From Escherichia coli (GTDB lineage: Bacteria > Pseudomonadota > Gammaproteobacteria > Enterobacterales > Enterobacteriaceae): a DNA stretch of 64,000 nucleotides. A program made the position numbers. Shown in pieces: positions 27,001 to 36,000 of this stretch. The DNA lies in assembly GCF_024298765.1 (NCBI RefSeq), contig NZ_CP101211.1; one strand, 5' to 3'. The stretch's first letter is position 1. Every line of letters begins with the position of its first letter.

Positions 27001-30000
27001 AGGCAAGTGCCTGCCGTCTTCTCTATGCCGCACTCCGTTAAAATTGAAAGTAGCTTTTCATGCGCCACTCTTGCAATGTCTGATACCAATTCCGGGGACA
27101 TGTTAGCTCCAGTGAAATTGTTAGATCGACTTAAACAGATAATAACTCAATATTTTCATGAAGTACTTGTGGGTTCTTAAACCAATAGCCGGAACCACAC
27201 ATCCAAGGTTCACCTGGGAAAACAAAACCTTCTTGAATAAGGTATTTGCGGAATAGGGGAGGCAGTACATTTTCAATTTTCAAAATGTAATTTTGTTCAT
27301 CTGCAATACATTTCAATTCTGCAAGAAGCGCTCTAAAAATGCCTGTGCCGGGCTCTTTAACTGAGATAGTTGAAACAACCATGACCGGATATCCCAGGAC
27401 CGAACACATGCCTGCTCTTGCCCGGATGTAGAGCTCCTCGAAATGGTGTAAGCCGTGTACATGAGAAGACCTTATGGGTATCTTACCATCTGATGCCTGC
27501 GTTATAAGGTCGGCGAAAACCTTTTTGATTTTCAGCAAATCTGCCTGAAAATTTTGATCGTTCAAAGGAAAATCAGATTGAGAATTTGTCATTACATATC
27601 TTATGTTTTAAAAACTTAACTTTGATAAAGCAAAGGAATACGCTGATCGTCATGTGATCCAAATTGAGCAATGAATTTTAATTCGGAACAGCTAAAGACA
27701 AAGCAGTAGGGTGCAATAATTCAGGATGTCGATACTATAAGAAGAATAGTGGTATGAATGTAGCAATTACCTCAATATGAGGGGGGCAACTGTTGATGCT
27801 GTACATACATACAGTATTTAACATAATCTTTGTTATATGTACTTATAAATCAATGACATAAGGTTTAAAGATCGTATGATCTACGCACTAGGTCATGGCT
27901 TGTAATGAGTGAAAAAAGGTTCAAGATTTTAGAGAAATGCTCCCAAGATCAACATGGCGGCATAAGTTTTCCAGCTTGACCAATCAATCGTGGAACCAAG
28001 CAACAGATAGAATGCCAGGCCTACCAGCCCCAGCTTTACTACTATCCCAATTAATATGGTAAAGATAGACTCATCGCGTTCGCCTTTAAGTAATTTACAA
28101 CGCGTAATTAGATCGTCTTTTTTCATGTAGAATCCCTTAGAGTTATTAAAGTCCTGCATTAGAAGTTGTTACCTGCCGAAGTTACCTCGTATGAGTTAAC
28201 TGTGGCTCCAAACATACAAAATATAAGCTGTGCCAATTGAAAGGATTAGAAAAGCACAGTTACTAATAAAATCTACTAATGCTTGTAGCTTCTTTAGTCT
28301 CACTATTGCTGGACCGTGTTCAGTAGAGGTACTACTCAGCCCTTTTGTTCTGGCACTCTCTGCTTTTCTGAAAAAATTGTAATGCAATCCTGACCGCAAG
28401 CAAAACCATGCCAAACCAGTCGTTATTACGATATTTATGTAGAAAGCATATTGAATCATTTGTTCAGTTTCGAAGCTTTCCATTGAAAACCCTTTGTTGA
28501 AATGTTGAATAAAATTATTTTTAGTAAATGTAAGCAATAAATAGAACGAATATTAATAGTGAAAGATGCAATGCCAACATCTGCTTATGATGCCTTATGA
28601 GGATTTCTTCCTTCGCATTCATTAAATCGTACATCTCATCAATATTTTTATTGCTGGTATATTCGAGACGTTCATCACGAAGTAATTTGAACTTTACCAA
28701 TACGACAAGTGATTTAATAATAAAGCTCGTAAGCATAACAGTTATAGACAAAAATAAAAAATAGGCCAAATTCATATATCACTCCATGGAGATTAATAGA
28801 AAAATTTATAATAAGTAATCTCATAGAGCATTACTTGAATCTTCTTCCCATACTAAGGACTCACCGAGAAATTTAGTTAAAGATGATTTGGCATACTGTG
28901 GTTCGGAAAAAAAACGTGGGAACCAGCCGTCAAAGCTTTGGGTACCATTGTGACGATTTTCAGGCGAGACTGATAAGCGGTACCCGTCTCCGTAAGGTGA
29001 AATGCTAAATGTGTATCCATCATCTGTCTTTGAGATCAGCGTTTTGCTTGTCATATGACTAATAGATACCGTTAACTCCTTTGGTGTTTGTATCACCGAA
29101 AGAAGAAACAATGCGCTTATGGCTGCAAAAATCCAGCAATATAATGATGCATCCATAAAACCAGCTACAACACTCGATCCCAAAAAAAACCAAAATAAAC
29201 TTATTAAGATTACTGAGTTTTCATTCATGTCTGTTCCTTGTTATTACTAATTATATTATGCTTTATAGTTGACCGTCAGACTACCCACGGGTTTTGACGA
29301 ACAAAGTCACGCACTCCATTTATACATGCTTTTGAGATGACTTCAAAATAAGGATGGTTTGATGGAATCATATTCCCGGTATTATCAAGAAGCATAATAG
29401 TCCCTAAAGACCGAACCAGTTGATATTCATTGAGCTTACGCTTTAGCAAAGTTTGCAATCTATAAATTGTCTCACCGGAACTGTTACCTTCGATACCTAC
29501 AACAGAGACCGTACAGTTCACTTCCTGATTATCAGATTGATAATCGAACCAGTAATTTTCGTTGTAATTTCCTTTTTGCGCATGCTCAATTTTGCCAGGC
29601 CATTTTACCCATAAAGAAGAGTTGTTTTTAGATCGTAAGATCTGCTTCAGCGTTTCCAATGGATTTTTTTCATCAACCTCAGACCAGGCCGAAATAAATT
29701 CTTTCTGCATTGCCTCAGGGTCTATAACGGCAATGAAATCAAATTCCTCTTTATTGATAGAGTTGGCTCGATCTTTGAGATAAAACAGACCGAGTTTATA
29801 TCCCTTTTCACTTTTCCAGTTTGCTCCCACAGGCTGATAGTCTGTATTTATAAACGGTTTGAAAGTGTGAGTGTCGGGAGAAAAAATTACTGAGGGTGCC
29901 AGCACCCGGCCTCGGTGTCGTATTGGATTTACATATATTTTTTCCCCGTCACATAACATTTCAATAATTGCTTTTGTCACAACTACTGAAATAGAAGGTC

Positions 30001-33000: not shown

Positions 33001-36000
33001 TGCCCCATGTTCAGCGACCAGAAGGAGGTCAGGCCTCAATGACCCTCCTGGGCTTGCTTAGTCTTTTGTGGACAGAGTCTGGTCTGAATGTCTGGTACCC
33101 GAAAATGGCAGGGAAACGTAACGATTCACTGGTACGGTATCGTCTGCTTGAAACCGCTAAACAAATTCGTACCGGCAGAGCCTGCATAGGTGACCATTTA
33201 TTCATTGGTGTACCTGACCCGAAACAACCTGTCGCTCAGTCGCAAATTCAGCGTCTTTCATCACAGGCGATGAGTGATAAACGTCTCATGCTCCTGTCAG
33301 TTTTACCTCGCTACGATGCTGAAAAGCATGAGAAGCCACTTAAATTTTTACCCCTGCGGAATTTTGGGGGGCTACCGCTGATTTTTTTCAATTCAGAAGT
33401 CCATTGGGATAGCGTAAAGAAACGATTTTCATCGGAGTACGCAGCATGGAAATCCGGGGCGAAAATAGTTGTCTTTGCGTTGACGTCACCAGCTGCGGTA
33501 ACCGGCAGAGGCCCTTCTGTAAGAGCTCATCAAATTGTGCTGATGCACGTTAGCGAGAACTGGATACCTCTGGACTCCTCCTATGAGGCGGTTGTTGCAG
33601 AAAAGCTGGATGCAGAGCACCGGCAGTACGTTAAGCCCATGCGTTATGATGCGAGTATTAGTGAGGTGTTCCCTGACTTCTACCTGCTCGACACAAAAAG
33701 CGATAAGCCGTTCCCGATGGAAGTATTTGGTATGGCCACTCCTGCTTATCTGGCCCGAAAGCAACTCAAAAAAGATTATTACAACCGTGAATATGGGCCT
33801 TATGGATGGTGGCACTGGGATGCGACCACAGCATCTGAAACTATGGTGCTGCCTCATTTTCCAGAATCACGCAAACCTCTTTCAACTGACACACCTGCTT
33901 AAAATGGAGAAAAAATGTCCTACATGCTTTCGCTAAGCGAACAGACAAAACTGAACGCTTTCCTGTCAGGGATCCTAGATGATTACAAGACTGGGGTTAT
34001 CACTCAGATACAAGCTGTTGGTAGAATCGGTAACGTGTTTTCTGCTCTGGAAAGTGGAGACTCAAAAAAGGTAGTGCATTTGTTGACTGAAGGACGAAAA
34101 CTCCTGCGGACGGGCTGAATGTCCGCAGAAGTTCTTATGTGCCAGGGGATGCAGAGAAGTGTATCAACCTGGCTTCATTTATCATGATGTTTTTCTGCTA
34201 CGCGGCTGTTTTGACTTTCCAGTACCTCCCCCTGCCATTGCACCAGTTAATGTATCAATGGTGCCTTTTAGGGATTCTGAGATTGTTTTCTCCGCCTCCA
34301 GGGTAGCTTCCAGCTTCATTACTTTGGCCTGGAGCGTTTTGAGTTCATTGCTTTGTTCAGCCACTTCCGCTTCATAGCCCTGGCTGACCAAAGTTACTTT
34401 ATTCAGGTCGGCGCTCAGCGACTCGTTTAGTTTATGGAGTTCAGTAAGCTCGGCATTCACCGCCACCAGGTCACCCTCTTTCCCGGACAGTGCACTTTTC
34501 AGCTCAGTACAAAGGTTCTGTGCAGCAATCAATTCCTGTTCAAACCTGTCCCTCTCTGCCTTTGTATCTGACACAGTCTGACTTAACTGGTCGCATTGTC
34601 TGGAAAGACCGGCGTTATCAGAACGCTGCGTGTTGATCTCTTCGTTCAGCTTTTTTTGATATTCAAGGTGACCAGCGATCTCTGTTTTACGTTCAGCCAG
34701 TTGCTGGGAGAGTGAGTCATTTGACTGCTGTGCGAGGCTCAATTCATGCCGTGTGCTATCTAACTGGTGATGGCAGGTTTCGAGTTCTGCTTCGGCAACA
34801 TTCAGCCTTGTTTCTAACTCCTTGACGGTACTGTCCCGGATCTCTAATCGACCCTGTAGTGCCTGATTCTCAAGTTTCAGCTCATCCATATCGGTAGCGC
34901 TTTGCTCAAGCCGCTGTAACAGCTGCGTTACCTCCTCCTCCAGCTGCATGCTACGTGCTTCAGCTTTTTTAACACTATCATTCTGTATTGCGGTATAGCT
35001 TCTACGGTAGTGCCAGGTGATGTACGAGATAATATCGCCGAGTGCAACCTTTACCTCATCGGGTATATCCAGGTAACGGGCCTCTTCAGGAACCTCTTTA
35101 ACATACTTCTGGTACTCCGCGAACATCTCCTGTGACCTTGCAAACGAGCCGCCAACAGCGTTTCTGAGCCAGTGAACTTTGAAGCTCAGATCGATATTTT
35201 CCGGGTTAATTTCTTTCTCTTTGCACAGACGTTCGATTGCATTGAAGTAATCGATCATCGCGATAGATGAGTACCTTGAACGACCCATTTCCTTTGATTT
35301 TTCAGTGGATTCGCTGCGGATGTCATTCTGCACCTCTGGCGGGGTAGCATCGTTCAGGCTTTTTTCTTTATCATTTTCAATCATCATTTTTTTCCTGCGG
35401 CCGGAAGCTGGTTTGCAAAATATATGCTGATAAGATCGTTCAGAGCATTCAGAAGCGAGATACTGTCGATGCAAATATGAACGTTTCCATTCTCAAACAG
35501 GCGACACCGCCAGCCATTCTCATCACTGACCTCGCCTGTGAATTCTGTATTTCTCATGGCCGTCAGCCTGTCGACCATACTCAGCCCACCGCCGGTTGCA
35601 GGTGTTGGAGTATCAGAACAGATGCATACAATATTCTCAAAGTCGCGTAAACAAAAGTGATTGTCCTGCGAGAAACCGTTGTACCTCAGCACGTTCACAC
35701 CAGGAAAAATCCCCCGAAGAACAAGCTTTTTTGGCATTGTATATTGCCTGGCATTGCTTTTGAAACTTCGGTCAAGCTTGTTGAGAACATCAACGAAACC
35801 TTCTGCAAGGGTGTCTCGTCTGTTAGCCAGTGCATGCTGTAATGTTCCCTTAACAATCTCCAGGGAAGCGACGGGCGGATCCGTACGAAGGGATTCGTTA
35901 AAGGCTTCTTTTTGCTTATGGTTCCAGTACCGGTCCATACCTGTTTCTTCAAAGAGCCTTTTCCACGTTTTACGGTCAATTTCCTTACGCCCCTCCTCGA

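Follow-up and report, generated by a model that had tools for sequence, protein, structure and literature searches.

The stretch analysed here, referred to below as the window, comprises 64,000 nucleotides of contig NZ_CP101211.1 from Escherichia coli, and this work concerns a plasmid-borne gene in it that encodes a DNA (cytosine-5) methyltransferase (methylase) of the Dcm/M.EcoRII type. The gene lies between a divergently oriented operon for a staphylococcal-nuclease-type enzyme (SNase) and a 298-aa protein, on one side, and a string of genes that includes one for a DUF1173 protein, on the other. The gene layout was taken from an open reading frame (ORF) map of the window and from the RefSeq annotation of an identical plasmid; since both agree, the coordinates and descriptions given by the first-pass annotation of this DNA were right for the genes that it described, although its gene list had missed the 55-aa (32393-32560) and 67-aa (33915-34118) ORFs. 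The features of the locus are as follows.

29276-30172, minus strand: 298-aa protein, downstream partner of the SNase gene (ORF map and RefSeq annotation).
30175-30690, minus strand: SNase-type (staphylococcal-nuclease-type, or thermonuclease) gene, 171 aa, product predicted to be secreted (PF00565, 85.4 bits).
30691-30904, no strand: intergenic spacer of 214 bp that separates the methylase gene from the divergent SNase operon (sequence).
30905-32332, plus strand: solitary Dcm/M.EcoRII-type DNA (cytosine-5) methyltransferase, 475 aa, with putative CCWGG specificity.
32393-32560, plus strand: conserved 55-aa ORF (orf55) between the methylase and DUF1173 genes, annotated as WP_000220758.1.
32583-33902, plus strand: DUF1173 protein, 439 aa, with a zinc motif (C53, C55, H86, C90), an OB-like middle part and a C-terminal PD-(D/E)XK-like nuclease domain.
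33915-34118, plus strand: conserved 67-aa ORF (orf67) after the DUF1173 gene, from which it is separated by a 12-nt gap (ORF map).
34104-34128, plus strand: terminator-like hairpin that would end the plus-strand gene string, with a 9-bp stem including 6 GC pairs (consensus match only).
34182-35387, minus strand: coiled-coil protein of ~401 aa, syntenic neighbour, annotated as WP_001572381.1 (coiled-coil-type matches only).
35384-36202, minus strand: DUF4942 protein, syntenic neighbour, with a 4-nt overlap with the coiled-coil gene (PF13708, 92.8 bits).

When compared with their orthologues on IncHI1A plasmids, all six genes display nonsynonymous differences (pN) far below the synonymous ones (pS), and they are therefore maintained coding genes. 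The corresponding values are pN 0.21 vs pS 0.85 for the methylase gene (dcm), 0.21 vs 0.92 for orf55, 0.12 vs 0.82 for the DUF1173 gene and 0.26 vs 0.75 for orf67.

A Dcm-type methylase without an adjoining endonuclease

The RefSeq start codon of the methylase gene, ATG at 30905 (475 aa), was preferred over an in-frame upstream GTG at 30863 (489 aa) proposed by the ORF finder, since it is favoured by RefSeq and by the alignment with Dcm; a Shine-Dalgarno-like GAGAG stretch precedes it. The first-pass annotation had credited the protein with all core m5C motifs and with a close likeness to E. coli Dcm and to the EcoRII methylase, and both statements were borne out. Motifs I (FAGIGG98), IV (PCQ181), VI (ENV229), VIII (QHRER279) and X (GNSV440) are all present, and the protein matches the Pfam families DNA_methylase (PF00145, 253.7 bits) and DNA_meth_N (PF18284, 27.8 bits; cut-off 25), the NCBIfam model PRK10458 (845.8 bits; cut-off 710) and the solved Dcm-type structure PDB 3me5 (E = 7.5e-194). 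Its identity to Dcm of E. coli K-12 is 65% over a gapless stretch of 438 aa, and its full-length identity is 61.5% to each of Dcm and M.EcoRII.

An alignment of six methylases, comprising the IncHI2 enzyme studied here, Dcm, M.EcoRII of IncN, the IncHI1A orthologue, the IncHI1B methylase and a metagenomic orthologue, revealed that every pair is 59-72% identical, with zero indels from motif I to motif X. Across the target recognition domain (TRD, residues 286-365), which aligns without gaps, the IncHI2 enzyme displays 73.8% identity to M.EcoRII and 63.8% to Dcm, the identity between these last two being 62.5%. Both Dcm and M.EcoRII modify CCWGG (PMC11602122); since the TRD of the IncHI2 enzyme is nearer to either of them than these two CCWGG enzymes are to each other, we strongly infer that it shares their specificity.

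With K-12 Dcm (b1961) the enzyme shares the length class (475 vs 472 aa), the DNA_meth_N domain, the catalytic motifs, a conserved TRD and the lack of an endonuclease partner; the structures PDB 3me5 and 3lx6 are of an enzyme nearly identical to Dcm. The two differ in their surroundings, as the chromosomal dcm gene overlaps and is co-transcribed with vsr, a pair that was seen on the E. coli K-12 chromosome, whereas the IncHI2 gene is plasmid-borne, lacks vsr and is flanked by the SNase and DUF1173 modules. M.EcoRII of IncN (WP_001288432.1, plasmid pHKU1) is likewise plasmid-borne, and its TRD is the closest of those compared; however, it is arranged tail-to-tail with the gene for the 404-aa EcoRII endonuclease, and the IncHI2 locus holds neither such a gene nor a remnant of it.

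That no vsr or restriction endonuclease gene lies adjacent, as noted at first pass, proved correct for the whole window: tblastn with K-12 Vsr gave a best E of 0.2, and no EcoRII-family endonuclease was found with two probes that have a mutual identity of 59% (the 404-aa enzyme of IncN pHKU1 and the 400-aa enzyme of a Klebsiella IncHI1B plasmid; best E = 0.28). When searched with these endonuclease probes, 29 kb of IncHI2 backbone and the syntenic loci of IncHI1A, of IncHI1B and of the metagenomic lineage likewise yielded no match (best E = 0.05-0.5), and the RefSeq annotation lists no restriction endonuclease within 12 kb on either side of the methylase gene. Conversely, an endonuclease gene was seen beside the methylase gene in the positive controls, namely IncN, IncHI1B and the IncN-derived cassette of some IncHI2 plasmids, the two genes lying tail-to-tail in IncN and IncHI1B. 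The best PADLOC model for the methylase is the orphan methyltransferase (oMTase) PDLC03733, with 683.8 bits. With no endonuclease gene adjoining, the gene does not belong to a type II EcoRII restriction-modification system, nor does it belong to a dcm-vsr pair for very-short-patch repair. By every sequence-level criterion, the protein is thus a member of the Dcm/M.EcoRII family and a solitary methylase.

As for a cognate restriction gene near by in related plasmids, which the first-pass annotation had named as a possible counter-indication, none is present at this locus; in a formal sense two observations bear on that point, since IncHI1B plasmids have an EcoRII-like pair elsewhere and some IncHI2 plasmids have acquired an EcoRII cassette from IncN that brings its own methylase. 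The order in IncHI1A is PLD-hypothetical-SNase and, on the other side, Dcm (72% identity)-56 aa-DUF1173-61 aa-coiled-coil, with the methylase solitary. In a metagenomic IncHI-like lineage represented by two loci, whose proteins are 61-62% identical, the gene order is unchanged and the methylase is again solitary. Judged from these comparisons, the solitary arrangement is an old one, conserved in diverged relatives and under purifying selection.

Other configurations were observed in the relatives. The IncHI1B plasmid pOXA-48_A4 of K. pneumoniae harbors a complete EcoRII-like pair (WP_004883137.1 and WP_057774868.1) at 5920-8627 of the locus examined, unrelated to the SNase/DUF1173 site; its methylase is 61.7% identical to the IncHI2 enzyme and its 400-aa endonuclease is 59% identical to EcoRII, and the SNase/DUF1173 locus of IncHI1B lacks a methylase gene. 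The diverged endonuclease class of this IncHI1B type accounts for ~390-570 PLSDB records (identity bands below 60% and of 60-80%). In the IncHI2A plasmid CP039390.1 of E. hormaechei, an IS26-bounded IncN fragment (traL-korB-kikA) with the full EcoRII system lies at 74095-87306, within the multidrug-resistance (MDR) region, so that this plasmid would carry two Dcm-type methylases. In Photorhabdus tasmaniensis (JASNMP010000008.1) the dcm gene, at 6182-6669 of the locus, has been reduced to residues 16-143 and 438-475 by an internal deletion of the whole catalytic core and the TRD. The orthologue of the 298-aa protein is shortened there to 143 aa, with a group II intron reverse transcriptase just beyond, and the genes for SNase, orf55, DUF1173, orf67, the coiled-coil protein and DUF4942 are intact.

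The segment 29000-34200 was found by megablast in 1,210 PLSDB plasmids, of which 1,134 match it at 99% identity or more, with Escherichia, Salmonella, Enterobacter, Klebsiella and Citrobacter as carriers. A representative carrier plasmid was typed as IncHI2A, MOBH and MPF_F, the ter operon adjoins, and positions 23734-37976 of the window are colinear with this plasmid (NZ_CP022165.1) at 99.98% identity. The segment is therefore a core, nearly invariant part of the backbone of IncHI2 (also IncHI1A) conjugative plasmids, so that the plasmid location proposed at first pass holds and can be specified as IncHI2. The methylase protein is intact at 99% identity or more in 1,107 plasmids, and more than a thousand records annotate its gene as 'DNA cytosine methyltransferase' or 'dcm'.

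Probable protection from EcoRII-type restriction and alternative roles

The solitary Dcm-type methylase probably methylates the inner cytosine of CCWGG and thereby shields the IncHI2 plasmid from EcoRII-type restriction. With such an enzyme encoded on the plasmid itself, plasmid DNA and host chromosome would be kept CCWGG-methylated regardless of the dcm status of the donor. Upon conjugation, the transferred strand would give rise to a hemimethylated duplex in the recipient, which EcoRII-family endonucleases would be unable to cut, and the same methylation would neutralise post-segregational killing by EcoRII-type restriction-modification cassettes.

The restriction systems in question circulate in the same hosts, as an EcoRII-family endonuclease is encoded on 2,619 PLSDB plasmids from Klebsiella, Escherichia, Enterobacter, Citrobacter and Salmonella. 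Such systems occur very commonly on IncN, IncHI1B and other plasmids that co-circulate with IncHI2, and the pressure is real. Experimental work with other plasmids has revealed that those coming from a dcm-minus donor turn EcoRII-sensitive, that chromosomal Dcm guards all tested plasmids from EcoRII, and that EcoRII restriction of pKAZ3, an IncA/C plasmid, rises ~2,700-fold once one of its orphan dcm genes is deleted (Dimitriu et al., 2024, PMC11602122); further, orphan methylases are a leading class among plasmid anti-defence genes (PMC11541004). Like the IncHI2 gene, that of pKAZ3 specifies a solitary cytosine methylase and resides on a large conjugative resistance plasmid of the MOBH type; its protection from EcoRII was experimentally shown for transfer from a dcm-minus donor. 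The plasmid families are different, and the likeness to the IncHI2 gene is one of arrangement. From homology and from this precedent, which together support the first-pass proposal of an orphan CCWGG methylase protective against EcoRII-like systems, we infer CCWGG specificity, in vivo activity and a protective effect for the IncHI2 methylase.

Several observations weigh against a protective role. The usual hosts, E. coli and Salmonella, already have a chromosomal Dcm, and the IncHI2 gene would therefore often be redundant. CCWGG avoidance, considered as a footprint of EcoRII, was not seen: the backbone holds 28 sites vs 35.4 expected under a Markov model in 15.7 kb, a sample too small to decide the matter, and strong EcoRII pressure thus finds no separate support in the sequence. 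Our literature search found no experimental paper on the activity or specificity of IncHI2 dcm, the gene name appearing in IncHI2 papers only as a map landmark. On early entry, or a position of the block in a leading-region anti-defence island (Samuel et al., 2024), the single measurement is the distance to the Tra1 genes, the nearest of which are ~52 kb away in one complete plasmid (NZ_CP022165.1), with ~25 kb of this distance made up of MDR insertions. Finally, dcm has been lost by internal deletion in the Photorhabdus relative.

Some of these points would also suit a methylase whose role is mainly epigenetic or regulatory, tuning transfer or host expression via CCWGG methylation rather than countering restriction. 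Conjugation of RIP113 was 10-fold lower when the donor was dcm-minus, also where no restriction operated, and Dimitriu et al. remark that methylases may regulate transfer (PMC11602122); the redundancy of the gene for protection in Dcm-positive hosts and a position not demonstrably in the leading region point the same way. Nevertheless, we consider a mainly regulatory role unlikely, given that no regulatory CCWGG sites were identified in this analysis, that the effect of a plasmid orphan dcm on EcoRII restriction is far larger (~2,700-fold; PMC11602122), and that EcoRII systems abound in the same plasmid pool. The methylase might also be the remnant of an ancestral EcoRII-type pair that lost its endonuclease and now hitch-hikes without a selected function, in line with its being about equidistant (~61-72% identity) from the IncN and IncHI1B methylases that have endonuclease partners, and with the Photorhabdus deletion; this is very unlikely in view of strong purifying selection in the IncHI1A, IncHI2 and metagenomic lineages (pN 0.21-0.28 vs pS ~0.8), of the intact and nearly identical state of the protein in the 1,107 plasmids, and of the failure of tblastn to find an endonuclease remnant in any syntenic locus.

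A different proposal joins dcm, orf55, the DUF1173 gene and orf67 into one operon, with DUF1173 as the nuclease partner, either a Vsr-like T:G nickase or a non-canonical restriction component. DUF1173 was described as a relative of the PD-(D/E)XK superfamily with an N-terminal zinc motif and an active-site signature that is not conserved (Laganeckas et al., 2010, PMC3045609), and the question of a methylase partner was examined because most type II restriction enzymes, as well as Vsr, adopt the PD-(D/E)XK fold. A set of 80 distant DUF1173 loci was obtained by scanning 100,044 species genomes; a C5-methylase gene was found within 6 kb in one of these loci (a weak match) and an SNase gene in three. 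Further, the SNase and DUF1173 genes are direct divergent neighbours on Klebsiella IncHI1B plasmids, without a methylase gene, and in Pseudomonas elements DUF1173 occurs alone. On these grounds, together with the gutted dcm of Photorhabdus, the idea that DUF1173 supplies the missing restriction endonuclease was rejected. That it is a lethal endonuclease reliant on the methylase is excluded, because DUF1173 occurs without a methylase and is intact beside that gutted gene; a Vsr-like accessory role is conceivable from fold and position only. The operon with a nuclease partner is, as a whole, very unlikely. Both sets of neighbours, the SNase and 298-aa genes as well as the orf55-DUF1173-orf67 string, are on this distribution separate modules and not partners of the methylase.

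With regard to protection from EcoRII-type restriction, the finding is real but ordinary, since the gene is already annotated and represents nothing new in kind; because experiments have established the principle for IncA/C and more than 1,000 records already annotate the gene, confirmation for IncHI2 would be incremental. Resistance genes, mcr among them, have IncHI2 plasmids as major carriers, and a backbone gene giving immunity to EcoRII-family systems would help to explain their spread in Escherichia, Salmonella, Enterobacter and Klebsiella. The residual interest lies in two uncharacterised modules, that of DUF1173, which is widespread on mobile elements and has a nuclease-like fold, and that of SNase with the 298-aa protein.

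The DUF1173 and SNase modules

The first-pass annotation had given the location and size of the 439-aa protein correctly; its description as unknown did not hold, as the protein belongs to Pfam DUF1173 (PF06666) with 134.8 bits against a cut-off of 25. The N-terminal CxC..H..C motif (C53, C55, H86, C90) is invariant in 35 of 35 DUF1173 sequences, and the C-terminal domain was placed in the PD-(D/E)XK fold. An AlphaFold model built from 35 homologues was confident (pLDDT 88.7, pTM 0.90), and a Foldseek search with it against the PDB gave nothing significant, with no solved full-length homologue. The proteobacterial subfamily keeps E335, K351, D365, D370, E380, R392 and K396 invariant; the position of the (D/E)XK lysine is occupied by Phe (E380-V-F382), with the invariant K351 and K396 elsewhere, and the most distant members of the family have lost the (D/E)XK-type residues. 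The sole PDB profile match was Bax1 (E = 0.31), aligned on DS..E, PDF, E-x-x-G and YLxRKxxK; Bax1 (DUF790) and Vsr-like nucleases are the nearest folds. Because of the residues invariant within it and the alignment with Bax1, the proteobacterial subfamily may be an active nuclease.

In distant lineages, the partners of DUF1173 are integrase-like, AlpA and Par genes rather than methylases. In 31 of the 80 loci, mostly from Betaproteobacteria, a gene for a ~314-aa protein with a helix-turn-helix (HTH) and a weak Phage_integrase-like match shares the strand of the DUF1173 gene, whose start it overlaps by 4 nt, as in a locus with the integrase-like gene at 4893-5837 and DUF1173 from ~5834 onward. 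Further recurrent neighbours include AlpA-, AcaB-like, ParA- and ParB-like genes, which suggests for DUF1173 a place in a genomic-island module for integration or regulation. A more specific proposal is that, on IncHI1/IncHI2 plasmids, dcm, orf55, DUF1173 and orf67 constitute one unit in which DUF1173 is an active DNA enzyme tied to methylation, either a vsr-independent T:G nickase or a methylation-discriminating nuclease; we regard it as very improbable. If it were true, a DUF1173 nickase would offset the mutagenic cost of a plasmid-borne Dcm, and DUF1173 would amount to a novel nuclease class of mobile elements, given its translational coupling to the integrase-like gene in the 31 distant loci mentioned above. 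In the IncHI1B relative, PsiA, a typical leading-region gene, is located ~2 kb downstream of the DUF1173 gene (10127-10858 of that locus), and its proximity hints that the region may transfer early in the IncHI1B lineage.

On the other side of the methylase gene, the first-pass annotation had proposed a secreted thermonuclease translationally coupled to the 298-aa protein. The nuclease and its 2-nt coupling were confirmed, and secretion is suggested by a signal-like N-terminus, seen by inspection only. The 85.4-bit match to PF00565 compares with a cut-off of 21, and alignment with the S. aureus nuclease revealed conserved DGDT, R-x-x-G-I-D-A-P-E and YGR motifs, with the equivalents of D21, R35, D40, E43 and R87. 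The N-terminus, MFFLTKLLLPIMIVVFPVASWG, resembles a Sec signal peptide, and an N-terminal lysine, a hydrophobic stretch and an ASW motif were also seen by inspection in three orthologues. The gene has the Shine-Dalgarno sequence AAGGTGA, and its TAA stop codon (30175-30177) is 2 nt from the ATG of the 298-aa ORF (30172); in four lineages, the spacing between this stop and start is 2, 5, -4 and 17 nt. The SNase fold and catalytic residues are thus common to the staphylococcal nuclease family, together with a predicted export signal, whereas the coupling to a protein of such restricted distribution sets this gene apart.

The 298-aa protein itself matched nothing in Pfam, NCBIfam, PADLOC or PHROGs, and its structure model, of moderate quality, gave no informative fold match. 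Its family comprises 25 cluster representatives among 1.84 billion proteins and is limited to few plasmid-like elements; a remote member lies directly downstream of an SNase gene in a context without dcm and DUF1173. Given this remote pair and the spacing kept in four lineages, SNase and the 298-aa protein are, on comparative grounds, a module of their own. The 298-aa protein could, speculatively, be a cytoplasmic inhibitor or helper of the nuclease. The SNase operons of IncHI1A and IncHI1B additionally include a gene of the PLD family (PLDc_2, Nuc-like; 3453-4232 and 5395-6213 of the respective loci), so that on these plasmids two nuclease-type genes, unrelated to each other, would be direct neighbours; the IncHI2 operon is without it, and in its place four small ORFs with no Pfam match occupy 27929-29228.

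Flanking features and the resistance mosaic

A scan for promoters and terminators performed at chance level overall. One promoter-like match on the plus strand, at 30737-30766, was recorded in the 214-bp spacer, itself at chance level (10 found vs 9.3 expected), and the hairpin at 34104-34128 is the sole strong plus-strand terminator candidate 3' of the methylase gene. Homologues of orf55 are present in the IncHI1A, Photorhabdus and metagenomic loci, and orf55 matches phrog_25588, a phage protein family of unknown function (E = 1.8e-24); orf67 has homologues in Photorhabdus (67 aa) and IncHI1A (61 aa).

The coiled-coil protein (34182-35387) gave weak matches of the LmuB/JetC/SbcC coiled-coil type only, and the DUF4942 protein matches phrog_38825 (E = 2.1e-100). 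Both genes accompany the dcm/DUF1173 block in IncHI2 and in its Photorhabdus and metagenomic relatives, and IncHI1A retains the coiled-coil gene. Beyond them, the IncHI2 backbone island is flanked on both sides by a high-GC resistance mosaic, with eight full and two partial copies of IS26 in the window: 1-665, 7290-7587, 10859-11677, 18145-18961 and 41723-42539, followed by 45323-46139, 49898-50714, 56019-56835, 59335-60152 and 61049-61873.

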